The notes under the pieces were generated by a model. It ran no database searches and had not been told where the DNA came from. It worked only from the letters and a program-made list of their open reading frames with translations. Below are positions 3,148-64,000 of a DNA stretch of 64,000 bases, piece after piece. Position numbers and translations under genes: made by a program. This stretch comes from a virus (lineage: Duplodnaviria > Caudoviricetes), in IMG/VR virus record IMGVR_UViG_3300032280_000320, positions 1-64,000 of that record. The stretch is one strand, 5' to 3'. The first letter of the stretch is position 1, and every line of letters starts with the position of its first letter.

Positions 3148-3173
3148 AATTCCTCCATCATAATACTATTATA

Positions 3174-3443: not shown

Positions 3444-3539
3444 TCTCTGTATCCTTTTCCCATGTAAGCTTTCCATCTTTATACACTGGCCAATATCCTA
3501 GTGGACGCCAGTCCATTTTCATAATCTTAGGCTCTTTCA

Positions 3540-3683
3540 TTAGAAAGAATTTCTTATCTGTTCTGCAATAAGTGCTTGACTTCTTTCAAATTTACTAATC
3601 TTTGGCTTAGCCGACAGCCTCTTTAAATTCTTTTTCTGTCTCTTCATTTTAGATTGTGAGCTTGATGTATTATTTTTTTTCAT
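3540..3683 (-). CDS. Small basic protein, leaderless (47 aa)
   Basis: MKKNNTSSSQSKMKRQKKNLKRL...; TTGTCA-17-TATAAT-6-ATG. Confidence 0.6.
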   Translation of the reverse strand: MKKNNTSSSQSKMKRQKKNLKRLSAKPKISKFERSQALIAEQIRNSF

Positions 3684-3721
3684 ATCTTTATTATACTATA
3701 AGTAATAAAGCCTGACAATAG

Positions 3722-47600: not shown

Positions 47601-48180
47601 TTGCTGGTGCAGAGGGGTCAGAATTAAACCCTACGGTAAAATCTGTACCAGACCATGCTGGGACAATTACTGTTGGTAAGCCTGGTGCATCAGCTTTTGC
47701 TGTTACATTTACAACTTGATTGAATCCAGAAAATGCTCCTGTTTTTGACACTGATCTAAGCTTTACATTATAATCGCCTGGCAATACTGGTATGTTTAAT
47801 GAGCCGCCTGTTGCTGGTATTGATCCCTTGCTTATATATAAGTTATCTGCGTCTGTCGCCCATTTAATATAAACTTCAATCTTATCTAGTGTTGATGGGT
47901 AGCTTCCTCCAACAGAATTTTTGCCGTCCCATTTAACAGTTATTATTCCTTGTGAGTATGTTACTATAGCTGGGGATGGCGGTAGTGGTGTTGATTCTGC
48001 TGGTGCGGTTATAGACTTTACTGCAGACCAATCTTCTCCAAATGTTCCATCCTTATACTTCCATCTAAACTCTAATGGATAAATAGTTCCTGGTATCAGG
48101 CCTGGTATGGTTACAATAAAGTAATCGCCGTTGTCATATGACTGCGATGTGTCTTTAAGTAAATCCTGATACTCTGCCAT
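44638..48180 (-). CDS. Tail fibre/tip protein with FN3 repeats and C-terminal S74 chaperone
   Basis: FN3 patterns (GLIPNVTYYYQVASVD), Gly/Ser/Thr beta repeats, SS..YKENI...GLIAEDV + coiled coil. Confidence 0.85.
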   Translation of the reverse strand: MAEYQDLLKDTSQSYDNGDYFIVTIPGLIPGTIYPLEFRWKYKDGTFGEDWSAVKSITAPAESTPLPPSPAIVTYSQGIITVKWDGKNSVGGSYPSTLDKIEVYIKWATDADNLYISKGSIPATGGSLNIPVLPGDYNVKLRSVSKTGAFSGFNQVVNVTAKADAPGLPTVIVPAWSGTDFTVGFNSDPSAPANSYLSFYLIKLIATDGTAADFTLRPVAGSSQKFALSLEANRASFGVPQTSFSGSVSTVDIYGNQGTPVTFAAHVYVNNLPAPTINVAEAVEGYTVSYTTPTDKTFAGIEIQEVESTSATDPASGYETCFYGLSNPVSLTRSNQNKRWVRARFIANNGSAGQYGAAVSVTPKSVVVADLIPPTNPTGIGAVATVDTYDQTGFSLSSRISWTASTDTSTRGYRLRWSPDNPATVPNPNWEYGFTNATSFTASGLIPNVTYYYQVASVDQYNNTQTYSTTQTFTAADAAATAVNAAARLKSILAIGGATGDLFKFGTGIPDSINTSITTIPSNSPSPLGGYHGILLNKTGNKNNYWLTTGQLRVGTDTQFMYFNGTNLYLTGNINAASGSFTGNVNIASGGSLYSGAIVGGNLSGAGYILNSTGLTFNSAGTNGITTINGTTGKLTTASASIGNWDVTSSAISKTSTSGTLTLNSATAQITATSTSYTAGIATPNTNSPSDIVFWAGGARSTAANFYVQADGTVVMKAATITGPTITDINTSLAAKASTTALTTGLATKASTTDLTTGLATKLGAGGAAADVNSNTTTISGGKIRTGVIQSATYTAPGGSPNTTPFSQNGMSIVLDNQGSIISKQFVIDASGNAFFKGSLSAASGTFSGAISASTITATDGTNTLTINSNGSISNSSTNFSVSSSGILTAKSAIITGNITANAVAANTSISGALITGGSINVDGGSGAVGNDPDGNPTVIISTVTNAFSTVYQRNGIPSLGVNSIGFISVNSGGWQSSCYPYYDGGSDLGINQSSAQSSVTYSTYRWRNLRLTGSIMIGGNGSSDTPNPDIAGRPITRIFGDGRIFANTLGTTTRTPGSGVTLVQAADGYLRVYSSASSRNYKENIEYKNTEPIYDLIKNLSPVTFNYKPEFSDLPEQVHLGLIAEDVHEIQPNNDLVIYKNGLPDSVGYEKIPMYLVGAFKEMANKIDTLQARLDALEG

Positions 48181-48181
48181 T

Positions 48182-49114
48182 TTATAGGTTTAGATCCAAT
48201 CTGTATTCTACGTCTACTGTTCTTCCCGTTGTTTTATATAGAGGTGAAGAAAGTATTGATCTACTTATAATACCAAAGTTTGGATCAAATGTATCCTCAT
48301 CATTTATTCTGAGTCCGTCTGCGCCAATAGATGTTTGTTGTCCAGTAACTGGTGTTATAACTATACCAATTCTATTAATGCTTGATATGTTTGGTCCATT
48401 TACTGCTCCCGCAAATAGTTCCTCTAGGTATATTTCGTCTGCTACCTTATACCCTACTCCTCCTGCAGGTGTTATTTGTACCTGATAATACTTATTAACA
48501 TCGCTATAAAATCTTATTTTAATGTTTGAAAGGTTTACATCGTTTTGATAATAAACAAAAGACAAGGAGTCTAGCTTTGAATATCCAGATAAATCAATTG
48601 GGATTACTGATGTAACATATTCTTTTGATGATCCCGTTCCTGAATACATCTCAAGTGTGGTCTCTCCAATTTTTCCATTGACATAGCTTAGTGATGGGTT
48701 GCCTCCTGCCAACTCTTCCCAGTCTAGGGGACTTGAAAACTCTGAAAGAAACTTACTATCATAGTTATTTGAAGATGTTCTTGTTGATGGATAAATTCCA
48801 ATTTCTGAAATTACACCAGAAACATCTTGTGGCAATGTTGCTTTATACACTACAGCATATGTGGTTCCATCTGTATCAGTCTGTATATCTGTGCTATAAA
48901 TTCCTACTGGCAGTCTATAAAACTCAAACTCTAATCTTGTGTCGTCCGCCGTTGCTGCGGTTGATCCTATACCAAATGCCATATCTCTGTCGGCTGTTTC
49001 TACCTTGCCAGCAAGAAGATTAGTTAAATATCTTTTACCAAACTTTGTTATAATATTTTTTGAACGGCCTATCTCTTTGCCGTCTTCATAATATATGTAT
49101 GTACCTTTTATCAT
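48182..49114 (-). CDS. Minor tail protein
   Basis: NIITKFGKR, L.FEFYR, ISEIGIY; start moved to MIKGT (GGAG RBS). Confidence 0.7.
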   Translation of the reverse strand: MIKGTYIYYEDGKEIGRSKNIITKFGKRYLTNLLAGKVETADRDMAFGIGSTAATADDTRLEFEFYRLPVGIYSTDIQTDTDGTTYAVVYKATLPQDVSGVISEIGIYPSTRTSSNNYDSKFLSEFSSPLDWEELAGGNPSLSYVNGKIGETTLEMYSGTGSSKEYVTSVIPIDLSGYSKLDSLSFVYYQNDVNLSNIKIRFYSDVNKYYQVQITPAGGVGYKVADEIYLEELFAGAVNGPNISSINRIGIVITPVTGQQTSIGADGLRINDEDTFDPNFGIISRSILSSPLYKTTGRTVDVEYRLDLNL

Positions 49115-49124
49115 ATTATCTCCA

Positions 49125-49907
49125 TTACTTTGGCGTAGAATACTGTGAGTAGTATGTCTTTCCATTTGTTCCAACTACAACTGCTCTTACACGAAGCCAC
49201 CTTGGGCTGGCGGTAGCACTTGTATCTCCTTCAGATGAGCTTACTCTATATGTTCTATTCTTGCCGCTATCTCCAATTGATTTTGAAGCAGAGGCAACAA
49301 AATCTTTAGTTCCGTTATCTAGTGCCGTTGCATTCTTTCCAGAAGATGTACTTATAATCCATTCATAGCTTACTGAATCATATGACCCTAGGCCTGTTGA
49401 GTTATTCCATCCCCAAGCAAGAGATCTTTCATTTGATCCATATCTACTAAATGTTACCGCTGGTACAGTTGGTGCAGGCGTAATAAATTTCTTTGGATCC
49501 CCTTCTGGTGTTTTATTATCATTTCTAGGTGCGGCGGCATCAAATATTCTCGCATCTACCCCAGCAATGTTTTCTTTATTGTCACTTGAGTTTCTAATCT
49601 TAATGAAAGCTGTCATAGTTGTTAGTTTAGTAGCAGGGTCATAGTCTTCTTGAAATGTAATGCTTTCAATGTCACTAAGGTCTGGGACATCCTTTTTAAC
49701 TACTGGTGGTTTGCCTGGTCTCTCTGGTTTTTTTGGATCTTTTGGTCCTGGTGGATTTGTACCACCATCATCAAATGCAGAATCTGATCCTACATAGGCA
49801 GCCTGAGATTCTTTGCTAGTAACAAGAAATTTATTTTTATTTAGAAATAACAAATAGTCTATATCATTTTCTGATACGACTGGCTGCCTTGAATCATTTC
49901 TTGTCAT
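49125..49907 (-). CDS. Tail-module protein with Pro-rich linker and FN3-like end
   Basis: Position; PPGPKDPKKP; WLRVRAV. Confidence 0.6.
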   Translation of the reverse strand: MTRNDSRQPVVSENDIDYLLFLNKNKFLVTSKESQAAYVGSDSAFDDGGTNPPGPKDPKKPERPGKPPVVKKDVPDLSDIESITFQEDYDPATKLTTMTAFIKIRNSSDNKENIAGVDARIFDAAAPRNDNKTPEGDPKKFITPAPTVPAVTFSRYGSNERSLAWGWNNSTGLGSYDSVSYEWIISTSSGKNATALDNGTKDFVASASKSIGDSGKNRTYRVSSSEGDTSATASPRWLRVRAVVVGTNGKTYYSQYSTPK

Positions 49908-49923
49908 TTTATTATTATACCAT

Positions 49924-51900
49924 TTATGTTCCTAATGACCTACAGGTGATTTCTGTAGTTAGGCCTTCCTTGTATGTGTGATAAACTCCAGTAATAATAA
50001 ACTTCTCTGTTCCGTCAAGCCCTTGATAAGTATACTTTACGCTTACAATATCTCCAGGAGATAGTAGAGGGTTTCCAAAAACTTCTGCAACCAATATCTT
50101 GCCCCTATTAACTACTACATCTTTAATCCAATAAGCAATTGACTCTACATCATTTTCATTTTGTAGCCACATTGACTGGAATACTATTGGCTCGTCGCTC
50201 TTATAATCATTTTCCTTTACTGTAGAAAACTCTTGATCTGGGGTTTTGTTTATCTGATTACCGAAAACAAATAGGCTATTAGTCTTTGAATCTTCTAGTG
50301 GGACTGTAGTGGAAGAGTTATTTAAAACAAATACATCTGTTCCATATGCCGATGTTTTATTGCCCAGTATCTTTGCTGATTTATTTAAAGATAAAGATAT
50401 GTCAATTGGTTTAGCTGGGCGTTCATCAAATTTGGTACTTAGTCTATAGATCTCTCTCACTGTTGATCCAAACTCTTCCACCGCCCCTGGCTTTTTTTCA
50501 ATTGCATCATCTTCGCTAACAGCGTTATATATAAAATCTCCAAATGATAGGTCTAATATATCATTTGAAAATTGTCCTGAATAAAAGTTTGGAGAATACT
50601 CTGCTTTTTTATACTGCTCTTCAGTTATTGTGTCTGCGTACACATAGTCAAAAAACGCTTTACCAATTGTTGAAAATAAGGCAACACCCTTTTTAGGGCT
50701 TATTGTTCCTGGGAATCTTTTATCATTGCTTACTTTGTCTGTAGCAACAATTCTTTGTCCATTAATAAAACATATTATGGTTGTTTGGGCTGATGTATAT
50801 TTTACCTTTAAATCAATAGAGTATGTTGTACCAGAAATCACTCCTGCAAACATAGAGTTTCTGGTTATCTGTGAGTCATTTAAAACTCTTTGCTCTGATC
50901 CGTCTACCTTTATTATCCTAAATGGTTTTTTATTTGCATCTGATGCATTTGCTTCTGTACTAAGCTGAATGAAGTATCCAGTGCCTCCATTATTGGATAC
51001 AAAAAATCCTAGCCCTGCCGAGTTTCTTCCATTTGAGTTAATCTCTGGATCAAAGTAAATGGTTGTTCCAAAAGAATAGTATCCACTTTGCGGTGTTCCC
51101 ACAACTTCATCTCTGCCGTATGTTGTGACTGGGGGAATTACTGAGTCAAAATCTTTGTATACTATAGAGCTTTCACCTTTTATTTCATTAAAAATTTCTA
51201 AATATGATTTACCAGATGTTTGATTTGCTAAAGATGCAGGTGATATTTTGTCTCTTGCAATTGGAGAATAGTATGAAGTTTTATATTTATTTACCTTCTC
51301 TGCAGGGCCTCTATTGGCAAGTAGTGTTGGGTTTCCCTTATAAGGTATGATGTTAAAGTCATAGTATCTTCCAGAATTTATTCCAGTTATAATTATATCT
51401 TGTATAGCTTTGCCTGTTGTAGCTCTTTCTGTTATAGGAGTTATTCCAGTACCATCAAAAGAAAATGTATCTGCTGTTACTGCTATTACTTTCTTTTTTG
51501 ACACATTAAATCTTTGATATGTATTAGTTATAGTTACATAATCTCCTACTGCAAAATTATGTGCAGTAGCAGTAAATGTAATTAAATTATTTGCACATAC
51601 TAGTTTTGTTACAGCATGTTTATAAAAGATTAATCTTCTAGTTTGGCTTCCTGGCCAAAACTCTGATATGGGCCCGTCTGGAGATGTGCCGTCTGATGAA
51701 AACATTTGATGAGTTACTATATAGCCGTCTGGGTCTATGCCTAGATCAATTTCTTTTACAGAAATATTTATATTTATATTTGAGTTCTCTGCTATTCCAA
51801 GATCTTTATTTGATATCTCGTGTATTGATGATGCATACAATATATCCATACCAATAGCGGTTCCACCGCTTCCATTAATATATGCTTCTGTTAGTCTCAT
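49924..51900 (-). CDS. Minor tail/baseplate protein
   Basis: FCCH-like TATAHNFAVGDYV; lectin-like middle; FGNP.L..GDIV.V C-terminus. Confidence 0.7.
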   Translation of the reverse strand: MRLTEAYINGSGGTAIGMDILYASSIHEISNKDLGIAENSNININISVKEIDLGIDPDGYIVTHQMFSSDGTSPDGPISEFWPGSQTRRLIFYKHAVTKLVCANNLITFTATAHNFAVGDYVTITNTYQRFNVSKKKVIAVTADTFSFDGTGITPITERATTGKAIQDIIITGINSGRYYDFNIIPYKGNPTLLANRGPAEKVNKYKTSYYSPIARDKISPASLANQTSGKSYLEIFNEIKGESSIVYKDFDSVIPPVTTYGRDEVVGTPQSGYYSFGTTIYFDPEINSNGRNSAGLGFFVSNNGGTGYFIQLSTEANASDANKKPFRIIKVDGSEQRVLNDSQITRNSMFAGVISGTTYSIDLKVKYTSAQTTIICFINGQRIVATDKVSNDKRFPGTISPKKGVALFSTIGKAFFDYVYADTITEEQYKKAEYSPNFYSGQFSNDILDLSFGDFIYNAVSEDDAIEKKPGAVEEFGSTVREIYRLSTKFDERPAKPIDISLSLNKSAKILGNKTSAYGTDVFVLNNSSTTVPLEDSKTNSLFVFGNQINKTPDQEFSTVKENDYKSDEPIVFQSMWLQNENDVESIAYWIKDVVVNRGKILVAEVFGNPLLSPGDIVSVKYTYQGLDGTEKFIITGVYHTYKEGLTTEITCRSLGT

Positions 51901-54164
51901 ACCCAGGCCACCCTCTTTTGTATCCAGCCTCCAGATTCTATTACATCCATTGGAGTGGCTTTATGGTCTGCTGCTGCTGTTCCAAGTGCGCCACGTGTTT
52001 TAACACGATATCTTCCTGTTGGCTTAAAGTATGCTGTTCCTAAAATGTTATTGATATCAACAAACCCTGGCTTTGACAGGGATACATATTTGTTTACATC
52101 GTTTTGTGATGCTATCCAAACAATATTTTCATCATCATTAAAGTCAATAAATTGATACTCTAATGCATCAAATTCAATTACCTCTGAGTCAATAAGGAAG
52201 TATCCACTGAATGCAAATCCACTTTGATATTGGCTATAAGAATCTCCAACAGTATTATTATTTATTACCAATACGGTATTATCTGCTGGCGTGTCCTTTG
52301 ATATGTCTAGCTTTAGTCCGCCTGCGCTTAAAAATGTTGTTGGTGCTTGGGCAAGCTTTGTCGCATCTCCAGTATATTGTGTTGGCACAATTGAATTCCA
52401 TATAACCTTTACGTTATTTCCAGAAGCAATTTCTTCCTGGCTTAAAGAAATAATGTTTGGCAAAACTGATCCTTCTGGCTTTTCGTAAAAATTCCATACA
52501 GGCGTTGTTTGTGAATATATCTTGTCTCTTGTATAAAACTGCAAAACATTGTTCTGATCAAAAAATGCATTCATCTGTATGTCTCTGCATAGATCTTGAA
52601 GGTGTTCCCAAACTGTTTTTGAATCTGTAGTCCACCAATATCCTATTGTAGGGATTGAAGTATCTTTAATTATTATAGCACCTTTTGCGGATGTTTCTGT
52701 TACCATGTTTATATTATAGTTTGTAAATCCAACTGAGTCTAGGAGTCTTCTAATTATTGCAGTTGCTGAATATGTCTCGCAAAGCATGTCTGGTGCAATT
52801 GATTCCATTAAATACTTTGCGCCATCTAGCGCAACTATGTCTGTCTCGCCAAAATTATTGATTGTCCAGCTATCCATATAATAAGATCCCTGTGGAATTT
52901 TATATTCTGTTGCGCCATCATATATTTTAAAGTGTGGTCTTAGTTCTGCATTTTTAAATGTGTATAAGAAATCAAAATCAGAAGGGCCACCTACAATACT
53001 TGTCCATGGCTTTTCTCTGTTATATGATCTAATCATAACTTGGCTTTGGTTGTAGTTTGCCAGAGACAGAGAAAGTACGTTTGCCGAAAGCTTTCCTACT
53101 GGTAAGATATCACTCGAAGATGAGTTTGATGATTCTTGTGACAAGCTAACTGCTGAGACTAGTGGGCTTATTTCCTTTACCCATCTTGCAGAAATTTCTA
53201 TTAACCCCATAACACTTGTTCCGCCAGGATTTTTTGCAGTTAATGCAATTGATTTTATATACTTTGGGGCTCTGTAAATATTGTCAGTAAAATGAATCCA
53301 GTTTGTATCTGCTTCAGTGGGATATAAGGATACTTCTCCTGATGGGAAATTTGTGCTGAAGTTAGGCATTGTTCCTGACTTTACTGTTCCATCTTTATAG
53401 GTTATGCTAACTGTAACTTCGGATGGTAGTGCATGATTCTTATCAAATCTAATTAATATCTTATTTGCAATTGCTGCTTTTGTTTCTGGTATGGTGGCTA
53501 CTCCAGCAGATGTTAGATAGCCAATCTTACCTATGTTCTTTTCTATAATAAATGAAGTACTTGATGGCACCTCTATAATTTTGCCGTTTGTGTTATATGC
53601 TGTGTCTGACATGCCAGTTATTGTTATTGTATTGCCAGTTACAAATCCATGTGGCACCGTGGTTGTATATTTAACCTTATATCGTGTACCAGTATTTGAT
53701 GCCTCCGCCTTTACAATAGGAACTGTAGTCTGTGAATACTTAATTGTTATTGTTGAGTCTTTGCCTTCTGGTGACAACCAATACTTGTAAAATGTTGAGG
53801 GGCCTGGGTAGTAAACTCTAGGTGTAGATAGATTATAGTATATAGCTTTTGGATCCTTGTATATAAAATTAGTTCCATCCGTTGGTATAACAAAATACTT
53901 AACCCCAGAATTTAATGGGCGGAATGGCTTGATGATAGAATCTACTGGGAAAAGCTTTTTATAGGGGTTAATTGATCCTTGCTTAAATCCATTTATGCCA
54001 GCAGTATATTCTGCATCTGTGTTTGAAGAATAGACTGATATGTTATCTATCATTGTATTCATATTGTATTCTACTTCACAGCCAACTGATATATTGATTG
54101 ATGATCTATTTTTTAATATTCCTGTTACGGCATCTGTTTGTGCCTGTGTTGCAAGAGAAATCAT
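51897..54164 (-). CDS. Minor tail (hub) protein
   Basis: Follows the distal-tail gene; FCCH-like TTTVPHGFVTGN; VWE.LQ.LC...FFD. Confidence 0.7.
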   Translation of the reverse strand: MISLATQAQTDAVTGILKNRSSINISVGCEVEYNMNTMIDNISVYSSNTDAEYTAGINGFKQGSINPYKKLFPVDSIIKPFRPLNSGVKYFVIPTDGTNFIYKDPKAIYYNLSTPRVYYPGPSTFYKYWLSPEGKDSTITIKYSQTTVPIVKAEASNTGTRYKVKYTTTVPHGFVTGNTITITGMSDTAYNTNGKIIEVPSSTSFIIEKNIGKIGYLTSAGVATIPETKAAIANKILIRFDKNHALPSEVTVSITYKDGTVKSGTMPNFSTNFPSGEVSLYPTEADTNWIHFTDNIYRAPKYIKSIALTAKNPGGTSVMGLIEISARWVKEISPLVSAVSLSQESSNSSSSDILPVGKLSANVLSLSLANYNQSQVMIRSYNREKPWTSIVGGPSDFDFLYTFKNAELRPHFKIYDGATEYKIPQGSYYMDSWTINNFGETDIVALDGAKYLMESIAPDMLCETYSATAIIRRLLDSVGFTNYNINMVTETSAKGAIIIKDTSIPTIGYWWTTDSKTVWEHLQDLCRDIQMNAFFDQNNVLQFYTRDKIYSQTTPVWNFYEKPEGSVLPNIISLSQEEIASGNNVKVIWNSIVPTQYTGDATKLAQAPTTFLSAGGLKLDISKDTPADNTVLVINNNTVGDSYSQYQSGFAFSGYFLIDSEVIEFDALEYQFIDFNDDENIVWIASQNDVNKYVSLSKPGFVDINNILGTAYFKPTGRYRVKTRGALGTAAADHKATPMDVIESGGWIQKRVAWV

Positions 54165-54640
54165 TATACTTCCTCCAGCGTCATTGATATTGTCCAGAAA
54201 GAATGTAATCCACGCTTTTGTAAGACTGCGGAAAATTCTGTAAACGAGACTGTATATACTTCTCCTGTTAAAGCTGTGTCTTCTGCGGCACCAGACTTTG
54301 CAAAATTTAATAGTATTCTAAATGTGCCCTTGCCTTCTTCGCTTGCATAAAATCTTCTTAGGTCTTCTGCACCAAGGTTTCCGTCTGCCGTATGTGTTCT
54401 TGTTGTGGGTAGCATATTCCAAGACATGCTAAATGTTTTTTTGTCAGCAATAAAAAATTTTCTAAGGGTTCCGTTAGCCATTCTTTGAGTTTGTTGGATT
54501 CTATTTGAGCCTACAGTTATTTCTGATCTATTGTGATCAGATATTTTTAGCCAAGTTAAAGTGGTGCCTGGGACAGTAGCAAGAACATCCTTGCCTTCTA
54601 TTTGTAACCCTACACCTTTAGGTAATTTTGTATAACCCAT
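54164..54640 (-). CDS. Distal-tail-like minor tail protein
   Basis: Directly after the TMP; SDHNR, RMANGTLRK..IADK, W..S..LEEV. Confidence 0.75.
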   Translation of the reverse strand: MGYTKLPKGVGLQIEGKDVLATVPGTTLTWLKISDHNRSEITVGSNRIQQTQRMANGTLRKFFIADKKTFSMSWNMLPTTRTHTADGNLGAEDLRRFYASEEGKGTFRILLNFAKSGAAEDTALTGEVYTVSFTEFSAVLQKRGLHSFWTISMTLEEV

Positions 54641-57600
54641 TATGCTTTAACCTCCAATCCACTTCCTAGTGATCTACTTTCTCCCATAGATTTAACTGAT
54701 ATCTTGCTCATTGTCTTTATAGACTCAACTGTTTTTCTTGTAACCATGTCAGACAGTGCATTTATGTCACCATCATATCCATTAATATTATTTGTAATAT
54801 TATATACGCCTCCACCCATTGTAGCATTATTAGCGTTTGGATTAAAGGGGTTCATATTAGCAGGAACTACTGCTTCATTCTTATGAAGCATGGCAAGCAT
54901 GTTTGCTGGGACGTTATTTATACCAGTTTCAAATCTAGGGATATTGAATTTGCCTCCACTTAAGTATCCCCCAGTTGCACCAGTAATTCTTTTACTTTGA
55001 AGACCCGCAATTTGGGCAAGCTTTGCATCCATTTCTGTACCAGATATAAATCCTCTAGCATATTGATTTATAATAAACTCCTGCATTGCTTTAAGGTCAC
55101 TTGGATTTGGGTAAGTCTTTCCGCTTTCATATTTACCAAAACGTGTCCACATTAAAAGTGCATCTAAAGCTTTTGTTGCTGTGGTGGTTCCAGTATTGGG
55201 AGTACCTACTGAAGTTTTATATTCATTTAAAAGATATGTAAACGGATTGCTTCCAGATCCTTTTGCCAGCATATCTAAGTCACCACTGTTATGGCCTCCA
55301 TCAAATCTTACTCCAAGCTTAGAGGCTACTTCTTGAATTACATCTTGATTTAAAGAATGATGCTCACCGCCGACAGCGTATAAGTATGGCTGATCTATTC
55401 CAATTTGTTTTTTTGCTTTATCTATTGCTATTATCTGTAGGGCTCTTTGGGCACTCATAGGAGTATCAACCTCATAAGAACTTCTTGCTGGCATGTAGAG
55501 ATCTTGATTGCCAAACACTCTTTCATGATTTGGCCTAGCCCTCATAGCGTCGTCTACTTGTGCGGCAGGTCTTAAATTACTATTTTCGTTAATTTCTTTT
55601 AATATTTGATCAAGCTCTGACTGGGAATATTTTTCTTTTGCTAAGTAAAATATTTCTTTTGTTGAAGGGTTTTCTGCCATTATTGGCAGCGGGTCTCCTT
55701 GTTTATATAACCCAAGCTCTGTTAATCTTTTAATATAGGCTGATTCTTCTAAAGGAAATACTGAACTGAGCTGCCCTTCTTTTTTACTATACTTAAATGG
55801 TTTCCCAAATTTTTGTAAGAAAAAGCTGTCGATTGAATGAAGCTGTTCTGGCTTACCGTTATATTTCATTAAATTAGAAAGTGTACTTACTATAAACGGC
55901 TTGTCTGGCTTCCAAGATCCCTGAAAATGAGATTGAACTGCATCATAAATTCCAAAGTGCCTTGATGTTCTAGCAACAGCATAATCAGCAGCTTTATCAG
56001 TTCCAGCAACAGAGCCTTTGGGTCCTACAAACCTATCAAATATTTTAAATCCTGCAGCAGTTTCTAGAAGGTCTCCGCTGGCATCTGCTGTTGGGAACTC
56101 TTCATTAAACACTCTTATCATTGGAATATCGTCTGGTGTTGGTGGAGCATAGGGGTCCATTCCTCTTGCTCTGTAAGCTGCAATCTCTGCTCTAGTTAGA
56201 GGAACTTCTCCACGGAATCCATGGAAACCTCCCTTTACTCCACCAGCACGTTCTGTGGCTGCTGCAATTAATGCGGCTTGCTCTTTGGCATTCTCTGCAT
56301 ATTCTTTTGCTGATCTGGCAAGTATCGGTGACATTGCTTTTGTTTTAGTTCTAATAGCAATATCGTCTTTTGCGCTACCAAGAGTTGCAGAAATCAATTG
56401 AGTAAGTCCTGCTGAATCTAGAGAGGTTGCAAGCTCTGGCATTCTTAGATCTTGGCCCAGCATGCTGATAGGGAGTAGGTCTGTATCTATTTTCCTTAAA
56501 TTTATGCTTCCTGCCGCTAGCATGTTCATTAAAAATTCTCTTACCTGTTTGTCATCCCACTTGTTATTATTCATCTTGTCTAACAAAATTTGAGCTTTTT
56601 TATTTTTTGGATCTTTTTTCAAAATATAAGAAAGTATTCCTTCGGGTGTTGTTGGTATAATATCAGAAACCTGATGATTTGTTAATAGGGAGCCAAGGTT
56701 TTCATTTGTGCCTTGGAAAACAACGGCATCGTTACCAAAAGGCCCTCCTGAATGTAATGGTACTTTATTTCCTTCATGAACTACAAATGGCGGATAATTA
56801 TTATTTGGTTTCATCTGCTCTGCAGTTGCAGTTATTTTTGGTTTTTGAATTACTGAAGCTACTCTATTTTCAACAAATGGCCTTGCTGCACCGATTACTG
56901 CAGCAGTTGCTGCATTTGTTGCAATCTTTGATCCAGATGCTCCAAGGAATGGTATCGAACCCTTTGGCAATAAGTGGCCAAGGTTTGGAATTCCTTTTGC
57001 TGCGCCAAATCCCTCAACTATAGATCTCATAAGTGCATTTCCGTTTGCCCCGCCAACCCTAGCTAAGGCAACATTTATTGCTGCGGTTAGGTATTCTCCT
57101 TTAGCCCAATCCCTGCCATCTTGGTAACGCTGAGCTCCTCCTGCTCCGACAAGGGCGGTGAGTAGAATATTTTGCATTTCGGTATGTATCGGACCACCAG
57201 GATTATTTCCCCCAATGGCTGCTGTCCAGTTTTTACTTGTTGTAAATGTTTCCCATAGAGATGGAGGGTTTTTTACCCATTCACCATTTTCATTTTTATA
57301 ATAGTTGCCATCCTTCTCATAAAATTTGTCGGTTGCTTTAGAGTTTGCTGCAGCTCTTGCTGGACTTAATGCACTCATGCTTGGACCTGAATAAGGTGCT
57401 TTGTAACTGCTTGCCATATGCCCTGGACTCAAATGCTTATGTCCTACTAGTCCGCCTTTATGGAAACCTAGCCCAGATTTAATTTTCTTAAATAGCTTAC
57501 TCCAATTAACAACTGAATGCATGGATCCACCAGATACCATTGTTCCCTGATTGCCAACAATTTCTCCGCCGCCAACCAGCATGCCTCTACTCCAAGAGTA

Positions 57601-60600
57601 TTCATGGTTTTCAGGAATATAATCTGGATAAATTGTTTTATATTTATCTGGTAGGAACAGCTCCGCTCTTCTATTTTTAGCTTTGTTTTCAGAAGTTGTA
57701 TTTGGAACAAGAGGTCTATATTCGCCATATCCTACTGGAGTGAATGCTGTGCCAGGAACAAACTTTGACATATATTCTGCAATAGCATTTGCTCTATTTT
57801 GTGAAAGGATCTTGTTGTCTTTTTCTTTACCTACAGAGTCTGTGTGTCCTTGAACAACTATTGATGCTAGCTTATGCTTAATAAGATCTTTAGCAATTTT
57901 TTGAAGCTCTAGTCTTTGCTCTTTATTTAATGTGTAAGAATTTGTATCAAAATTAGCTGTGATAGGCGGAACTTCAATTTTAACAACCTGCTTATTGGCA
58001 TCTTGCCATGCTTCTATTGGGCCCATTAGTTTTCCGCCTTGTTCGACTCCCTCAGTTGTCGATCCATGCCTATGTCCTACAGGCCCGCCTTTATGTAGCC
58101 TTTGAGCATTTAATTTATCAAAAAAATTAACTCCATATTGCTTTACAGCTTTTTCTTTAATTACATATTCACCATTTGAAAGCATGGCTGGAATAGAATC
58201 AGATGTTCCAGTTCCTGGACCAGATACTTTTCCTCCTGGCTCAAAATACTTTACCTTACCGCCCTTATTATATGAAACTACTTTTTTATCCCAAGGATTG
58301 CTAGCGTAATTTTCGCTTGCCCATCTACCAATTATTTTTCCATTTTTATCGGTTACTCTACCATCTGCTGTGTAGGTATATCCAGTTTTTGGATCAATAT
58401 AATCTTTAAATTTATTACGACCATCTTCTTCTCTGATAGTAGTTCCACGTTTAGTTGGATCTGGGTGCTTAAATGATTTATACTGGGCTCCTCCTGGAGT
58501 ATCCTCTGCAGGTTTAGGCATAAAGAATCTTTCACTTTCTTTATAAACTTTACCAGATGAATCTATGTACTGTCCAGTTTTCTTATCAAAAGTTAATTTT
58601 ATTGGTGCTCCCTTTGCATTAGCAAAGGCATTAGCTTCTCCTACTTCTGGTAATCCTAGTAGCTTTTTGACATACATTCCAAATGAATCTACGTGTTCTC
58701 CAAAGCCATCAAAATATTTTTCTGCATATTCTACAGCTGAGTTACTTGCTCCACCAGGATCATTAGTTATCTTTTTTAGATATGTGAGCCAATCAGCTGA
58801 ACCAGGCTGCTGGAAACTTAATCCCTTTGGACCAGTAACTGTTTTTCCTGCTGTTATTGGAACACCAGCTGTAACTGTTTTTGCTGCAGCCGCACCTTCT
58901 GAATTTATTGCAGCTAACGCTGCTACGTCTGATTGTAGTGCTTTTGCCAAGGTGCCTAGAACACCCTCATCTGTTGTCATTCCAGCTTTTGATATAGTAG
59001 TTGCAATACTTTGCTGTAGGGCCTGTATTGATGCATATTCTTTTTGCTTAATGTTAGCAATTTCTTGTAGCTTGTTTGCTTTCTCTTGAAGCTTAATAAG
59101 TCTCTCTTGAACTGCAGCTTTTGCTTCTTCAAGCTTTTTAACTTCTGCATCTCTTTTATCTTGGATTGCATCTATTGATAATGTTTTTTGTCTTTCGTTT
59201 GTTAGACTTTGTATATTAAGCTGTGACTGCGCTGCACGTGACATATCTCCAGCTAACAATGCTTGCTGGTAATTTAGTTGCTCTTTTTGTACCTCTGTTA
59301 AATAATCTTGCTTTTCTGCTTGATCTTCAATAGCACGTATTCTTGCATCTGCTTCTTCGTTGATTTTTTCTATCTTTTTGTCGAGAGCCTTTATCTCTGC
59401 ATCTGCATTCTTTTGAGCATTCTTTGTTGCATCGTCTGAGGCTTTCTTTGCTTTATCGTATGCAAGTTTTGCTGCTGTTCCATAATCTGCAATTGCATCA
59501 ATTGGGTTATTTAATAAGTTAGCATTTGTAGTCATTTCAGATGCAGCTTGTGAAATTGCTGTCACTACCTGTAGCAAATCTTGTGCTTCTTGTCCGCTTA
59601 ACCCTGATAGATTAGCAGTTACGCCATTTGTATAAAGCTGTATTTTTGCCCATGCATCAACCATACTGTCATTTGAATTAAGTATATCTTTGTATAAAGG
59701 ATTTTCTTTTACAAGAAGATTTAATATGTCATCGCCAATATCTTTTTGATTATTCTTATTTGCATTCATTTGCTCTATTGTGTCATTTAGAGCTTCTGTC
59801 TGTGTCTTTGCTTTTCCAGTCTCATCTTTTATTCCAACTAGGCTTTGGTAGTATAGCTGTATTGCATCTAGCCCGCCGCTAAATGAGGCTGCTATTTCTT
59901 TTTTGTCTACGTCTGCGCCTTCAATTGATTTAACAAATGTCTCTATTGCTACTCTTGCTGCGGATGCTCTGTCTACTACTCTTAAAAATTCTGATGAGGA
60001 TACAGCTGCCGTTGCCTGAGCAGCTTTATTTGAAACAGATATAATGCTGTAAATTTCTTTTGCAGCTTCTTGTGCTGATTTTCCTGCTGCAACTAGCTGA
60101 ACCTTGAGTGCTGTTGCTGCTTTTGTAACGTCATTTTCATCAAGGTTATTAAACATCTGTACGATGTCACCTTGTGTTTCTTTAGCTTTCTTTTGTAGAG
60201 CATTAAGTTCTTTTACAGACATATTGATTCCGCCGCCTATAGCGGTAGATCCAGCAGCCTTAATCTTTGCTAACTCTCCCTGTGCCTTTGCAGCTTCTGT
60301 TGCTTTTTTAATTTTGTCTGTCAGGCTTGTGTATGTTATGCCAAGTTGTTTTGCTTGTATTTCATTTACATCTAATGCTTCTTGAGAAGCAAGTCTTGCT
60401 TTTCTTGCATTCTCCCATGCTCCATAAGAGACTGTTGCAAGTGTTGTTAATGCAAATATTGCAACCTTACCCCAACCAGGAATTGCTTTGCCAGCAGCAT
60501 TAAGCTTTCCTAAAGTTTGACCAAACTTGCCAACGTTTCTTTCTGCTGCAACAGCTGCCGTTGCTTCTCCTACAGCACCTCCTGCTTTGGCGGCTTTAGC

Positions 60601-63600
60601 AGTTTTTATACCTTTGTAAATTGATCCAGCAGTCATTACTGCAAATATTCCATTTAGAATAAGGTTTGATTTTTCGCTGGCGATTCCCAACTTCTCTAAA
60701 GCTTTTGGCAATAGCATAAATGCAGCTAGTGGTAAAGCTTGCTGTGCAACAACACCTGCAACTGGACCTAGTGCTCCATAATTATATTTTCCACTTTTAA
60801 TCATTCCTCCCAATGCATGGTTAGGAACAATACCTCCACTGTTCATAGGAACAAATAGTTCTGGTCCCTTTTCTCCAACTATGTAAGGTGTGCCACCAGA
60901 TACAGGTCCGCCTTTTTCTCTAGCCTCTAAGCCAAATATTAATTTCTTTAACTCTTCTGTTAATGGAGTATCTTTTCTTGATTCCCAGTTTGTATATCTT
61001 CTTTTAAGTATATCTCTGTCTATTGCAGACAATACCTTTCTTCCTTCTGGTGCGGAAATTGTAGAAGATGCAGCTGATCTAATAACTGAGTCCATAATAT
61101 CTGGCTCTAGTGCTTTTAGTAATTGTCCTTGTGCATTTTTAGAATAGCCATAAGGCATTTCTTTTGCAAGTGCTTCTGCAAACTTGTCATAAAGAATTCT
61201 TTGTGCTCTCTTTGTTAATCCGCTAGAAGCAAATAGCTTTTCTGCCATTCCTATTTCTAGTGATGTTACTCCCCATCCGCCAGTTGTATTCTTTCCAAAT
61301 CCCGCTCCAATTCTACGCATAGCAAGAGATTTAATAACATTGATTAATCCACCACCATTAAATCCATTAGCATCAGATTTAAATTCCATATCACTTAAGC
61401 TTACAGCGTGGCCCTTTTGTCTTGCTCTTAATGCTGCAGCTTCTTCTAATTTAGCAAGTGCTGCTGGCGTCAATGATTTTGGAGCACTTGGCTTAACTGC
61501 TGCATGTATGCCGTGAAGTTCTTTCCAGTTTACATGCCTTGCATCTTCAAGCCTTCTTATCATTGCAGCATAAACTTCTTCTTCTCTTGGAGTTAGACCT
61601 TTAAAGCCAGCAATTGTTTCTTTTAGTCTAGGAAGGACCTCATCAATTTCATTAAGCATTGATTGCTGATATTGCTGAGGAGTCATTCCTCTTGGAATGT
61701 CTACTGTTGATTCTGCAAAGAATCTTTTTGCTCCGCCCTTTACGCCAAGTAAATTAATTCTTGCTTGTTCTCCAACTGATGGCATATCGTCTGCGTATGA
61801 TCTCAGACCAGAAGCTGTTTTAAATACACCCATAGTTCCGCCATCTGCAACAAAACTTCCACCAATGTTACCAGGTGATAAATCTTTGTCTCCTCTTAAT
61901 GCTGATGCGAGTAGCTGTTGGAAGTACTCTTGCTCTGACATTTCTTTTGGCAAGCTTGCAAATCTTGGGTCATAAGGTGATTCAAGAACAAGGAGTTTTC
62001 TTTTGCCTGCTGGATCTGTTGGGTCTATCATTACCCTTATTTCCTGCTGAGGTGTTGTTAATCTATGTGCTCCTTGGTGTATTGCATTATATCTTTGCTC
62101 AGCAAGTGCAGCAGTTTCATCAAGGACTGGCTTAACAAATACTCTTGTTCCGTCTGGCTTTGTGTATACTCCGCCCACTCCTTCGACTGGGAAGCTGTGA
62201 CCTTTTGTATCTTCTTCTTTCTTTCCAAAGTTAGTTGGTTCTTCTTTTGCAAAACGACTCTTGTTTACTGCTTCTGTCGTCTGCTCCATAACCTCTCTAC
62301 GTTTTCTTTGCTCTTGAACCTGCTTAATTGATTTAGGCATTCCAAGAAACAGTCTGCCGTAGTTTCTTTTCTTCTTTAAAATAGGTCCGCCCATTGCAAA
62401 TTCTTCAAATTCATCAAGCTGCATATGGGCAAAAGCTCCACGCTCACCATTAACTGTCATTCCTTTAGGATTGTATGATTCATAAGAACCCATGAAGTCT
62501 GTTCCGAATTCATCATTCTTTGCAATTAATTCATCTACGCTTGTTGTGCCATAAGGATTTATTCCTGTGGCAGCTTTAAATCCAGATTTAGTATCTCCTG
62601 GTTTACGGAATGCTCTTCTTTGTCCAGGTATACCTAAAGACCTAATATATTTCTTTCTTAAACCTAATCTCTTTGCTATCTCTAGATATACATCGTGTTG
62701 TGCTTTTGCAAATAATTTTTCTCCAATTAATGTATCACCATGTGCTTGGAAGTTCCCTACAATTTTATCTCTTGCTTCTAAAACTAATGAGTCTGCCATA
62801 TCGTCATCTATTTTATTTACCTTTAAGAATCTTCTTAGTGCTGGTAGCGCTTCTGAAGGAGGGAGTGACATTATGTCATCTATTATTTCTTGTGGCTTGG
62901 CTGTACTACTATTTATTTTTGAGTTTGTTGTTTTTCTAGTATTGAGTCCCCAGTTACCAACAAAGAAATATCCAAATGGATTTTTAAGTGTGCGTTTTAC
63001 TGGTGCTGCTGCTCCTAGTGTTTCATCAACAAATTTTTGAGCATTAGATCCAGAAGTTGCAACTCTCTTACCCATCTTCATTATTGGAGACAAAAGATCT
63101 TCTGCTGCATCTGTAACAGCCTTTGGCAACTTAACTCTTCCATAATTGTGCTTACCAGAAACAATTGGTCCACCTAAAATTCCGCCTGCATTTCTAAATT
63201 GAATTCTTTGTCCGTTATTTGCCGCCTCTAATATAGGCAACATCTCTTGTGTTTGTTCTGGTGTAAATACTGTCTCATATGGAGTCAGCATTGCATCAAT
63301 CATTCCGCCACGATTATATGGCTTAGTCTTTTTTGCATATTCAACTAGCTGTGGATTATTTCTTGTTGCATCTTGATTTAATACAAAACCACCAACTGGT
63401 ATTTTTGCCATTGTATTGTCATAGTTTACACTCTTGTCACCAGGTACAACTGGGCCATCTTCTAATGTGTATACATATCCACCATCATTAAACCCTCTAG
63501 ATGGACCTCTTTTTGGAAGAATAATTCTTGGCTTAGTGGTTTCTATACTATAGCCTCCGCCTGACGTTCTAACTCCTAAGCCTCTTGCAACATCATCAAC

Positions 63601-64000
63601 AAGTGCTGCGGTTTCTGGCTTATGGAACATTTCTTTCATGTTTGATTTACCAGTTACTGGATCAACTACTGGCTGGCTAGTAAATGGTACTGTTGTTAAA
63701 TTAATACTTCTTCCCATACCTGCTGCAACTTGTGCCGCAGTCTCTGCCATCATTATTTCAATTGTTGCATTAAGTGAAATTATTCTTGCTCTAGCTTGCT
63801 CTACAGTTATTACACCTTGCTGTAGCTGTCTTACAATCATTGCTCCTTCATCAGCCGCCAATGAAGTAAGTTGTTGCATTTGTGGAAGCATCTGTTGATA
63901 AACTGAGGATAACTCATGTGTTACTGTTCCAGTTGCTGCTACTTCCGTTTTTAATAATGTAAGTTCTGCTTGAGACTGGGTTGCAATAGCTGCTGTCATT
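54640..64000 (-). CDS. Tape-measure protein, at least 3119 aa, 5' end outside the window, with embedded kinase-like and OmpA domains
   Basis: Size and position; Ala-rich coiled coil; TMP motifs GGPV..GTPYIVGEKGPELFVP and GPGTGTSDSIPAMLSNGEYV. Confidence 0.9.
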   Translation of the reverse strand, partial: MTAAIATQSQAELTLLKTEVAATGTVTHELSSVYQQMLPQMQQLTSLAADEGAMIVRQLQQGVITVEQARARIISLNATIEIMMAETAAQVAAGMGRSINLTTVPFTSQPVVDPVTGKSNMKEMFHKPETAALVDDVARGLGVRTSGGGYSIETTKPRIILPKRGPSRGFNDGGYVYTLEDGPVVPGDKSVNYDNTMAKIPVGGFVLNQDATRNNPQLVEYAKKTKPYNRGGMIDAMLTPYETVFTPEQTQEMLPILEAANNGQRIQFRNAGGILGGPIVSGKHNYGRVKLPKAVTDAAEDLLSPIMKMGKRVATSGSNAQKFVDETLGAAAPVKRTLKNPFGYFFVGNWGLNTRKTTNSKINSSTAKPQEIIDDIMSLPPSEALPALRRFLKVNKIDDDMADSLVLEARDKIVGNFQAHGDTLIGEKLFAKAQHDVYLEIAKRLGLRKKYIRSLGIPGQRRAFRKPGDTKSGFKAATGINPYGTTSVDELIAKNDEFGTDFMGSYESYNPKGMTVNGERGAFAHMQLDEFEEFAMGGPILKKKRNYGRLFLGMPKSIKQVQEQRKRREVMEQTTEAVNKSRFAKEEPTNFGKKEEDTKGHSFPVEGVGGVYTKPDGTRVFVKPVLDETAALAEQRYNAIHQGAHRLTTPQQEIRVMIDPTDPAGKRKLLVLESPYDPRFASLPKEMSEQEYFQQLLASALRGDKDLSPGNIGGSFVADGGTMGVFKTASGLRSYADDMPSVGEQARINLLGVKGGAKRFFAESTVDIPRGMTPQQYQQSMLNEIDEVLPRLKETIAGFKGLTPREEEVYAAMIRRLEDARHVNWKELHGIHAAVKPSAPKSLTPAALAKLEEAAALRARQKGHAVSLSDMEFKSDANGFNGGGLINVIKSLAMRRIGAGFGKNTTGGWGVTSLEIGMAEKLFASSGLTKRAQRILYDKFAEALAKEMPYGYSKNAQGQLLKALEPDIMDSVIRSAASSTISAPEGRKVLSAIDRDILKRRYTNWESRKDTPLTEELKKLIFGLEAREKGGPVSGGTPYIVGEKGPELFVPMNSGGIVPNHALGGMIKSGKYNYGALGPVAGVVAQQALPLAAFMLLPKALEKLGIASEKSNLILNGIFAVMTAGSIYKGIKTAKAAKAGGAVGEATAAVAAERNVGKFGQTLGKLNAAGKAIPGWGKVAIFALTTLATVSYGAWENARKARLASQEALDVNEIQAKQLGITYTSLTDKIKKATEAAKAQGELAKIKAAGSTAIGGGINMSVKELNALQKKAKETQGDIVQMFNNLDENDVTKAATALKVQLVAAGKSAQEAAKEIYSIISVSNKAAQATAAVSSSEFLRVVDRASAARVAIETFVKSIEGADVDKKEIAASFSGGLDAIQLYYQSLVGIKDETGKAKTQTEALNDTIEQMNANKNNQKDIGDDILNLLVKENPLYKDILNSNDSMVDAWAKIQLYTNGVTANLSGLSGQEAQDLLQVVTAISQAASEMTTNANLLNNPIDAIADYGTAAKLAYDKAKKASDDATKNAQKNADAEIKALDKKIEKINEEADARIRAIEDQAEKQDYLTEVQKEQLNYQQALLAGDMSRAAQSQLNIQSLTNERQKTLSIDAIQDKRDAEVKKLEEAKAAVQERLIKLQEKANKLQEIANIKQKEYASIQALQQSIATTISKAGMTTDEGVLGTLAKALQSDVAALAAINSEGAAAAKTVTAGVPITAGKTVTGPKGLSFQQPGSADWLTYLKKITNDPGGASNSAVEYAEKYFDGFGEHVDSFGMYVKKLLGLPEVGEANAFANAKGAPIKLTFDKKTGQYIDSSGKVYKESERFFMPKPAEDTPGGAQYKSFKHPDPTKRGTTIREEDGRNKFKDYIDPKTGYTYTADGRVTDKNGKIIGRWASENYASNPWDKKVVSYNKGGKVKYFEPGGKVSGPGTGTSDSIPAMLSNGEYVIKEKAVKQYGVNFFDKLNAQRLHKGGPVGHRHGSTTEGVEQGGKLMGPIEAWQDANKQVVKIEVPPITANFDTNSYTLNKEQRLELQKIAKDLIKHKLASIVVQGHTDSVGKEKDNKILSQNRANAIAEYMSKFVPGTAFTPVGYGEYRPLVPNTTSENKAKNRRAELFLPDKYKTIYPDYIPENHEYSWSRGMLVGGGEIVGNQGTMVSGGSMHSVVNWSKLFKKIKSGLGFHKGGLVGHKHLSPGHMASSYKAPYSGPSMSALSPARAAANSKATDKFYEKDGNYYKNENGEWVKNPPSLWETFTTSKNWTAAIGGNNPGGPIHTEMQNILLTALVGAGGAQRYQDGRDWAKGEYLTAAINVALARVGGANGNALMRSIVEGFGAAKGIPNLGHLLPKGSIPFLGASGSKIATNAATAAVIGAARPFVENRVASVIQKPKITATAEQMKPNNNYPPFVVHEGNKVPLHSGGPFGNDAVVFQGTNENLGSLLTNHQVSDIIPTTPEGILSYILKKDPKNKKAQILLDKMNNNKWDDKQVREFLMNMLAAGSINLRKIDTDLLPISMLGQDLRMPELATSLDSAGLTQLISATLGSAKDDIAIRTKTKAMSPILARSAKEYAENAKEQAALIAAATERAGGVKGGFHGFRGEVPLTRAEIAAYRARGMDPYAPPTPDDIPMIRVFNEEFPTADASGDLLETAAGFKIFDRFVGPKGSVAGTDKAADYAVARTSRHFGIYDAVQSHFQGSWKPDKPFIVSTLSNLMKYNGKPEQLHSIDSFFLQKFGKPFKYSKKEGQLSSVFPLEESAYIKRLTELGLYKQGDPLPIMAENPSTKEIFYLAKEKYSQSELDQILKEINENSNLRPAAQVDDAMRARPNHERVFGNQDLYMPARSSYEVDTPMSAQRALQIIAIDKAKKQIGIDQPYLYAVGGEHHSLNQDVIQEVASKLGVRFDGGHNSGDLDMLAKGSGSNPFTYLLNEYKTSVGTPNTGTTTATKALDALLMWTRFGKYESGKTYPNPSDLKAMQEFIINQYARGFISGTEMDAKLAQIAGLQSKRITGATGGYLSGGKFNIPRFETGINNVPANMLAMLHKNEAVVPANMNPFNPNANNATMGGGVYNITNNINGYDGDINALSDMVTRKTVESIKTMSKISVKSMGESRSLGSGLEVKA
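57433..58095. repeat. 30-bp direct repeats flanking the OmpA cassette
   Basis: 57433-57462 and 58066-58095 match at 26/30; encode HKGG(L/P)VGH(K/R)H. Confidence 0.85.

Follow-up and report, generated by a model that had tools for sequence, protein, structure and literature searches.

Tape measure proteins (TMPs) are the first phage proteins to enter the host, and that of mycobacteriophage TM4 reportedly contains an embedded wall-degrading domain. Here we analyse a giant TMP gene in a stretch of 64,000 nucleotides (the window), which comprises bases 1-64000 of the 114,331-bp IMG/VR virus record IMGVR_UViG_3300032280_000320, a record rated complete. The encoded protein is punctuated by short glycine-glycine (GG) motifs of the form GG-x-[VIL], here termed joints, which in some places form the edge of a recurring element of ~60 aa that we refer to as the mini-module. 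The joints are conserved among related phages, lie in predicted flexible linkers, and are sites at which protein segments have been exchanged, inserted or deleted.

Among described systems, the TMPs of T5, TM4 and Basilisk hold one or two fixed domains each, with no combinatorial cassette slots described, and these domains degrade the cell wall, whereas the recognisable cargo of the TMP studied here is a non-catalytic, OmpA-type binder. As far as the available text of the respective papers goes, T5 pb2 is similar in being a ruler with a wall-directed domain that is ejected into the envelope and cut between ruler and enzyme (PMC10038345), and Basilisk gp47 in being an ejected TMP with an embedded wall-degrading domain (PMC6145125). 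Phage lambda gpH shares the joints themselves, having one GG-bounded mini-module (FATGG...PAGIVHRGEFVF...YATGGYV, residues 733-784, within its broad TIGR01541 region); it is expelled as a trans-envelope channel and is cut in a Gly-rich region just upstream of the module (PMC12617516). However, gpH is only 853 aa long, has no cargo domains and a single module copy, and belongs to TIGR01541 instead of having a TP901-type core.

Larger carriers have also been described. Thermus phage P23-45 gp96, a giant TMP of 5,002 aa fused to the virion RNA polymerase, delivers its enzyme and is the published precedent for delivery of an enzyme through the tail lumen (PMC10770324). It differs from the present protein in that the enzyme is N-terminal, the mini-module is absent, and GG-x-[VIL] is not in excess (10 against 6.5±2.6 expected). 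The Sle1/Tme proteins of contractile injection systems are TMP-related coiled-coil carriers with a divergent, exchangeable C-terminal domain that are loaded in a tail-like tube, but they belong to bacterial nanomachines, have one C-terminal domain and a DUF4157-type partner, and no GG joint grammar is described in the available part of that paper (PMC13277306). Polyvalent proteins (Iyer et al. 2017; PMC5512222) resemble our TMP in being very large and multidomain, in including kinases, and in their predicted entry into the host with the DNA, and their release by embedded peptidases has been proposed. In contrast, they are packaged in the head or transferred by conjugation, and the available text of that paper has 0 mentions of tape measure proteins; their hub domain, a zincin-like MPTase, is absent from our TMP (no HExxH), in which only the OmpA and TMP-core families were recognised. 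Both TMP-borne enzymes and TMP-like carriers with exchangeable C-terminal domains are already published. Our literature search returned no account of a grammar of joints in TMPs, nor of cassettes being exchanged combinatorially in these proteins, although its motif and repeat queries were swamped by soybean papers.

GG motifs in a giant tape measure protein

The window contains a minus-strand open reading frame (ORF) of 3119 aa at 54640..63999 that is cut off by the window end. A first reading made from the letters of the window (the sequence-only reading) had placed a tape measure gene at 54640-64000, and the family is confirmed by PF10145 in Pfam (88.1 bits against a cut-off of 33.2, residues 239-438) and TIGR01760 in NCBIfam (101.3 bits against 28.8, residues 191-547). 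The reading missed that the gene runs beyond the window. In the complete record the open frame extends to 66321, with the best start a TTG at 66237 that is preceded by AAGGAG, giving a product of 3,865 aa (P0002) whose canonical TMP core (PF10145) falls outside the window. Residue numbers below are those of this full protein, and its features are collected in Table 1.

GG-x-[VIL] occurs 23 times in the full TMP, 22 of these inside the window. Shuffles of the full protein give a mean of 6.3 (sd 2.5), and none of 2000 shuffles reaches 23. The density of 6.0 per 1000 aa is ~5-fold that in 75 other ORFs of the genome (1.2; at least 150 aa each), and motifs with an aromatic residue at -3 number 7 in the TMP against 2 in 24,696 residues of the other ORFs. 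All 12 heptads listed in the sequence-only reading are present, and its three extended signatures of the form GG..I...K.NYG were found essentially where it had placed them (window 63139-63186, 62356-62391 and 60775-60810).

A search of 5.8 billion proteins gave 222 matches to the TMP (E<=0.001 among 1836 candidates scored), of which the 120 listed, of 2,268-4,340 aa and many of them on contigs of 100-120 kb, are referred to here as relatives. The motif is enriched in every one of these 120 proteins (median 16 against 5.4 expected, minimum z 2.8), with a consensus of [FY]-[AN(H)]-x-G-G-x-[VI]-[PG]. Across the relatives, F and Y are enriched 6.5-fold and 4.9-fold at -3, and N and H ~4.8-fold at -2. 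At eight junctions the GG pair is retained in 27-31 of 31 aligned relatives. One junction region, a GG / GE.GPE / GG module, is common to TMP families of cultured phages in PHROG; pentatricopeptide matches to its GE.GPE stretch were judged spurious, as no stretch passes on its own.

Breakpoints and cassette exchange at the joints

When compared with its relatives by BLASTP, the TMP is not colinear: conserved blocks are broken up by unrelated sequence. We counted 459 internal segment ends from 119 relatives, and 238 of these fall within 10 aa of a GG-x-[VIL] motif, against 10.9% of random positions (maximum 16.1% in 2000 sets). The modal segment ends lie at six motifs (residues 1009, 1033, 1283, 1821, 2721 and 3761). 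The proposal of the sequence-only reading that the GG motifs are points of recombination, with whole cassettes varying between them, is thereby strongly supported; the alignment of relatives that it had suggested as a check shows variation by whole cassettes.

A relative (P0004) is 96% identical to our TMP over residues 1-2718 and 83% over 2916-3865, while the OmpA cassette between these parts is swapped for unrelated sequence; identity ends at the GG of LHKGG and restarts at GFHKGG. DNA comparison shows the same pattern: two IMG/VR relatives have 92.6% identity up to codon 2694, share no similarity over 3.2 kb, and return to 92.4% identity from codon 3765, continuing into the genes downstream. 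One block has thus been cleanly replaced within otherwise near-identical phages, and its borders are the canonical mini-module at one end and the GATGGYL joint at the other end. In two further IMG/VR relatives, DNA similarity ends at codon 2713 and resumes at codon 3761. One apparent case was discarded: a relative split into two ORFs (P0123 and P0124; 1,786 and 2,145 aa) at a joint is explained by a frameshift at the REKGG codons (residue 1776), probably an assembly indel in a G-rich run, and not by a natural split.

To follow the re-use of segments, we divided all 120 proteins wherever motifs cluster; the resulting 1,297 segments were grouped by similarity into 112 clusters. Across the set the modules are arranged in 94 distinct orders, in line with the swappable cassettes of the sequence-only reading. 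For slot A, which separates the N-terminal region from the kinase-like domain, there are 23 variants, and 61 variants follow the helical ruler, where 20 proteins have only the C-terminal end module. The 16 proteins with an OmpA cassette have eight different right-hand neighbours for it. Differing slot-A cassettes all close with a joint of the NAGG...GG...YG type, and [FY]H[KD]GG.VGH.H borders the alternative cassettes of the C-terminal part. A His-type joint stands on either side of the OmpA cassette, and the DNA cores of this pair are identical at 26 of 30 positions, a short direct repeat that could mediate gain or loss of this cassette, while the NYG-type joints are identical at only 25-30 of 57.

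Predicted domains and the mini-module

We made two AlphaFold2 models with family alignments, covering residues 860-1830 (mean pLDDT 59.0) and 2666-3865 (mean pLDDT 53.6). Better-predicted bodies are found at residues 921-1013, 1064-1252, 1303-1602, 1664-1765, ~2760-2835 (OmpA), 2959-3040 and ~3147-3655 (a large domain). Stretches between such bodies with pLDDT<50 hold 17 of the 19 modelled motif hits, a clear excess given that ~45% of all modelled residues fall below this value. The placement of the linkers at the borders of globular segments in the sequence-only reading thus holds for these 17 motifs but not for those at 949 and 977, which sit inside a small predicted domain.

The canonical mini-module (residues 2659-2720) consists of [FY]xxGGxV, a Gly-rich loop, SDSIPAxLSxGEYVI (a predicted hairpin), a helix and LHKGG. 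It matches TMP chains of mycobacteriophage Douge (two copies) and Pseudomonas phage JBD30; according to the available text on these structures, only the last 33-42 TMP residues are modelled, so the mini-module is without a known structure. In the full protein it is matched by no Pfam or NCBIfam model. A full HMMER scan of 1.84 billion representatives gave 14,415 matches at E<=0.001, and the best 150 proteins, of 301-7,872 aa, have 1-11 copies each. Among 504 copies in 149 proteins, the GG motif is present on the N side in 466 and on the C side in 364. Two mini-module proteins compared with Pfam are both TMPs, one of them a distant giant with SLT and NlpC/P60 domains after its module copies. 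Our TMP has one canonical copy; the domain at 921-1013 and the start of the C-terminal module are degenerate copies, and the remaining joints are bare forms of 7-12 aa. A three-copy complex prediction of the module (2666-2727) scored 0.04 against a mark of 0.42, and nothing is drawn from it. Separately, two TMP-like proteins of 7,872 and 7,794 aa (P0285 and P0291), among the longest seen, have 10-11 mini-module stretches at a spacing of ~1,000 aa.

Proposed role of the joints as flexible junctions between modules

We hypothesize that the joints are conserved flexible junctions that derive from the TMP mini-module and separate independently folding units, allowing storage in the lumen, refolding and in-frame recombination; we consider this the probable explanation. 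The fixed scaffold would comprise the TMP core with a first hydrophobic hairpin, the kinase-like domain, a helical domain with a second hydrophobic segment, the helical ruler and the C-terminal end module, and two variable slots would interrupt it and hold cargo cassettes. The recurring [FY]-[AN]-x-G-G-x-[VI] would be the edge of the mini-module, with full, degenerate or minimal copies acting as joints. Each module might in this way lie extended within the tail lumen and, once expelled through the tail tip, refold independently. Moreover, the joints would make in-frame recombinants viable, so that the cargo set could evolve combinatorially. After ejection, by analogy with the TMPs of T5, lambda, HK97 and TM4, the hydrophobic and helical parts may build a conduit across the envelope, which the OmpA-like cassette would tether to peptidoglycan where relatives use CHAP/LysM. 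The kinase-like domain would be delivered ready-made, possibly to the cytoplasm. Since motif copies differ at synonymous sites, exchange is likelier to proceed through homologous recombination in flanking modules, or through selected illegitimate events, than through pairing of the motifs.

Several observations weigh against this interpretation. Apart from the 26/30 pair, copies of the motif within the gene vary at synonymous positions; conservation does not extend to their DNA, and the motif therefore cannot itself be the substrate of homologous recombination. Hits at residues 1886, 2001, 2734, 2890, 3014 and 3808 coincide with no peak of breakpoints and may reflect chance or ordinary Gly-rich sequence, while a minor peak at residue 1257 (n=10) is 26 aa from any motif. 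As segment ends tend to stop at conserved islands, part of their pile-up at motifs follows from motif conservation, and because the 120 relatives are phylogenetically related the breakpoint counts are not independent events. The module-order analysis cuts at the motif by construction and speaks to the re-use of segments, not to the position of borders; evidence on borders comes from the P0004 alignment, the DNA comparison and the BLASTP segment ends. Both AlphaFold models are weak, low pLDDT is no proof of a linker, and the motifs at 949 and 977 lie within a domain. Our literature search found no measured function of the mini-module, and cargo other than OmpA is without an assigned role after searches of PDB, BFVD and Atlas.

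Two other explanations of the motif pattern have to be weighed. The mini-module and GG edges could be docking marks to which tail assembly partners such as chaperones, the inside of the tube wall or the hub bind, and could keep long chains in register, in which case cassette borders would coincide with the marks only because the marks are indispensable. The ~1,000-aa spacing of the module in proteins of 5,000-7,900 aa would suit such a role, as would its conservation across more than 14,000 clusters whatever the cargo and the short distance between it and the hub-bound C-terminus in the lambda, JBD30 and Douge proteins. However, in published cryo-EM maps (PMC12617516 among the papers, in the parts available) the TMP is unresolved in the tube, and what is ordered in the hub is the last 33-42 residues and not the module; moreover, our TMP has a single canonical copy and most of its joints are bare motifs of 7-12 aa. 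We find docking unlikely. If the motifs were instead mere Gly-rich spacer, any flexible linker would be equally tolerant of recombination, and their place in low-confidence, Gly/Pro-rich stretches and the synonymous differences between copies are what this would predict. Yet the flanks are specific (aromatic at -3, Asn/Ala/His at -2, Val/Ile at +3), the extended NYG and GHxH forms reappear at both borders of cassettes as well as in unrelated cassettes that relatives carry, and the same grammar appears in lambda and in distant giant TMPs, which makes passive linkers very unlikely.

This locus and its 120 or more relatives show a general building rule, in which a short conserved joint permits whole modules to be exchanged between phages. 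If this rule holds, the tail lumen would be an evolvable delivery slot; its cargo could be read by cutting the sequence at each joint, and engineering would find natural sites there.

The question of cleavage

The sequence-only reading had also offered the linkers as cleavage points. In its full form, each GG joint or mini-module would be a processing signal at which the TMP is cut during tail maturation or after ejection, with a host protease or self-cleavage freeing the kinase-like, OmpA and other domains ahead of the DNA. The 3,865-aa chain would then release a kinase, a wall anchor and several further proteins into the host ahead of all phage gene expression. A related claim is that the mini-module is a maturation signal of TMPs, with every copy or joint cut, and also defines the lambda cut from gpH to gpH*.

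There is precedent in that lambda gpH and T5 pb2 are both cut during tail maturation (PMC12617516; PMC10038345). The available text of the 2025 Ur-lambda paper describes these as the only TMPs known to be cut, places the lambda cut in a Gly-rich region near residue 690-720, where it frees a C-terminal peptide of ~14 kDa, and gives the exact site and the catalyst as still unknown (PMC12617516). Residues 709-784 of gpH include both the mini-module and a GGAV motif, and a cut after residue 710 would leave 14.6 kDa, close to the reported mass; a cut after 737 (FATGG) would leave 12.2 kDa, although the mass estimate fits any cut between 700 and 737. In JBD30, the authors propose, in the text available, a cut at residue 1066, which is the end of the JBD30 module copy (1019-1067). 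In addition, globular domains of 300-500 aa would be hard to fit into the tail lumen as a trimer.

Against cleavage at every joint, T5 pb2 is cut after an Arg and not at a GG motif: the site described in the available text follows R1127, between a hydrophobic stretch and the peptidase motif (PMC10038345). Our TMP contains no HExxH and no cysteine, and therefore no recognisable zincin or cysteine peptidase; Pfam and NCBIfam identified no peptidase family in it, in a search limited to the TMP and not extended to the rest of the genome. Control of tail length, as established for lambda, needs a ruler that stays intact at least until tube assembly has finished. For P23-45 gp96, the one giant TMP studied experimentally, the available text reports the full-size protein in virions (PMC10770324), but it has no mini-module and is therefore no direct test; having neither the module nor a motif excess, it was dropped as a test case. 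The available parts of the TP901-1 dissection paper hold nothing on motifs or cleavage, and those of the Douge paper nothing on SDS-PAGE, mass spectrometry or cleavage. With its cut placed only approximately, lambda supplies no rule that could be applied to our TMP. We judge a true polyprotein quite improbable, and a general maturation signal that also sets the lambda cut appears to us similarly doubtful; at most, we assume a lambda-like single maturation cut. The position of the mini-module beside the lambda maturation cut makes the old question of lambda cleavage testable in a laboratory phage.

Cargo of the cassettes

The OmpA domain noted in the sequence-only reading is the best-supported piece of cargo. 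PF00691 scores 66 bits against a cut-off of 27.2, and Foldseek matches the cassette to OmpA, Pal, OprF and TagL with probability 1.00 and target TM 0.5-0.6. This assignment is solid, and peptidoglycan binding is predicted from it. Across the 120 proteins, the recognised cargo families were OmpA (16/120) and CHAP with LysM (3/120), and no others. The term effectors in the sequence-only reading is consequently too strong: swappable cargo exists, but the recognisable cassettes are wall binders or hydrolases. OmpA and CHAP/LysM cassettes fit envelope penetration, and their direction towards the wall favours a function in passage across the envelope.

The kinase-like domain is a fold lead that we regard as real. 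All leading Foldseek matches are kinases (CtkA, SidJ, p38), none of them at E<=0.001; the top match, CtkA, has E 0.016, probability 0.96 and target TM 0.36, from a weak model. An Atlas feature search returned LepB_N-type clusters at 0.93. Elements in the order of a protein kinase can be traced in the sequence (VEGVGGVY, VFVK, AALAE, KDLSPGN and ADGG, corresponding to Gly-loop, Lys, Glu, catalytic Asp/Asn and DFG-like Asp), and 29-30 of the 31 aligned relatives retain G1353, G1356, K1369, E1380, D1452, N1457 and D1465. No kinase family was found by Pfam at E<=1 or among the best 25 of 33 NCBIfam matches, and phmmer gave no significant PDB sequence match for residues 1283-1780. The sequence-only reading had listed this domain among the segments bordered by its linkers; the kinase likeness persists in our analysis, but the domain, which is cluster 4 or clusters 10 and 11 of the module analysis, belongs to the conserved scaffold and is not swappable. 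When sought as a stand-alone protein in a word-based search, it gave 50 shorter matches, all resembling TMP fragments and mostly on short contigs. A conserved kinase-like domain inside a ruler protein is unexpected, and our literature search found no report of one.

For the other cassettes, no family emerged. phmmer against PDB sequences gave nothing significant for residues 640-1283, 2925-3756 or the C-terminal 126 aa. Foldseek of the second model (2666-3865) returned only the OmpA domain in PDB and nothing credible in BFVD, and an Atlas search with residues 3140-3660, the large C-terminal domain, gave no usable match. Seven shorter proteins matched this domain in the stand-alone search, all resembling TMP fragments, so that it was found only inside TMPs or their fragments. 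The slot A cassette had no match in PDB sequences, in Foldseek against PDB and BFVD, or in Atlas.

Table 1. Features of the tape measure protein gene, with positions in the 64,000-nucleotide window and residues of the full protein.
Feature	Position	Strand	Evidence
Tape measure protein gene, 3' 81% (residues 747-3865 and stop); gene start 66237 outside window	54640..64000	-	ORF; PF10145 and TIGR01760 on full protein
Small predicted domain, residues 919-1013, two degenerate hairpin-plus-helix mini-modules; GG motifs 919, 949, 977	63199..63483	-	AlphaFold2 block, pLDDT 62-82; sequence pattern
Junction 1, GG..I...K.NYG type, residues 1018-1033; breakpoint peaks 1009 and 1033	63139..63186	-	Motif scan; BLASTP segment ends
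Variable slot A cassette, residues 1034-1282, predicted helical, no family	62392..63138	-	Unrelated segments in relatives; AlphaFold2
Junction 2, NYG type, residues 1283-1294; strongest breakpoint peak of N-terminal half	62356..62391	-	GG kept in 29-30/31
Putative protein-kinase-like domain, conserved, residues ~1303-1602	61432..62331	-	Foldseek, Atlas, conserved residues
Conserved helical domain, no family, residues 1664-1765	60943..61248	-	AlphaFold2; cluster 3 in 112/120
GG / GE.GPE / GG module and NYG junction 3, residues 1776-1821; breakpoint peak 1821	60775..60912	-	PHROG TMP matches; weak lambda-type TMP chain match
Hydrophobic segment (1825-1844), then long helix-favouring region, presumed coiled-coil ruler/conduit	58288..60765	-	Hydropathy, composition
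Canonical GG-bounded mini-module, residues 2659-2720	58078..58263	-	Douge/JBD30 TMP chain matches; 14,415 clusters; lambda gpH 733-784
His-type junction LHKGGPVGHRH, partner of FHKGGLVGHKH	58060..58098	-	Motif and DNA comparison
OmpA-like, predicted peptidoglycan-binding cassette, residues 2721-2924; Pfam domain 57670-57951	57466..58077	-	PF00691; Foldseek; replaced in P0004
His-type junction FHKGGLVGHKH, residues 2925-2937	57427..57465	-	Motif and DNA comparison
Candidate C-terminal cargo block, residues 2938-3755: partly hydrophobic module 2938-3145 and large globular domain ~3147-3655	54973..57426	-	AlphaFold2 model 2
Conserved C-terminal end module, residues 3756-3865, starting with GATGGYL and a degenerate hairpin motif; presumed hub-binding end	54643..54972	-	Cluster 6 in 76/120

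Genomic context and further observations

Upstream of the TMP gene are a head-tail adaptor, a 227-aa Ig-domain protein and two small chaperone-like ORFs (110 and 83 aa), and downstream are proteins of 755 and 658 aa that both match the PHROG family 'minor tail protein'. These neighbours are consistent with a siphophage tail module, the position of a TP901-family TMP. Hydropathy peaks at residues 537-571 and 1825-1844, and residues 1930-2520 have a helix-favouring composition (AEKQL 49%, P+G 6.8%). Given the core scores of PF10145 and TIGR01760 and the tail-module neighbours, the ORF can safely be regarded as a TP901-family TMP of an uncultured siphophage of ~114 kb. If the 0.15-0.19 nm of tail per TMP residue found in other phages (figures from the available text of the Basilisk paper, PMC6145125) holds here, the tail would be ~580-740 nm long.

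A megablast search with the gene against 50,697 phage records gave no match, and tblastn matched only residues ~18-631, to TMPs of cultured Streptomyces phages at 31-38% identity; judged by these searches, there appears to be no near relative among cultured phages. Some TMP relatives are on three metagenome-assembled genome (MAG) contigs, labelled Bifidobacterium sp. (85 kb), Acidimicrobiaceae and uncultured lake bacterium. These bins are not trusted, the contigs being probably phage contigs binned with bacteria, but the labels weakly hint at an actinobacterial host, in agreement with the N-terminal likeness to Streptomyces phage TMPs.

The entire 3,865-aa TMP is without cysteine, as are 104 of the 120 relatives (maximum 5), an absence in keeping with the need to unfold, travel and fold again outside the cytoplasm. 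Finally, positions 44638-54640 of the window encode a 158-aa ORF, then the 755-aa and 658-aa proteins, which correspond to two halves of phrog_10359 and look like a split of one longer tail protein, and a minor tail protein of 1,180 aa.

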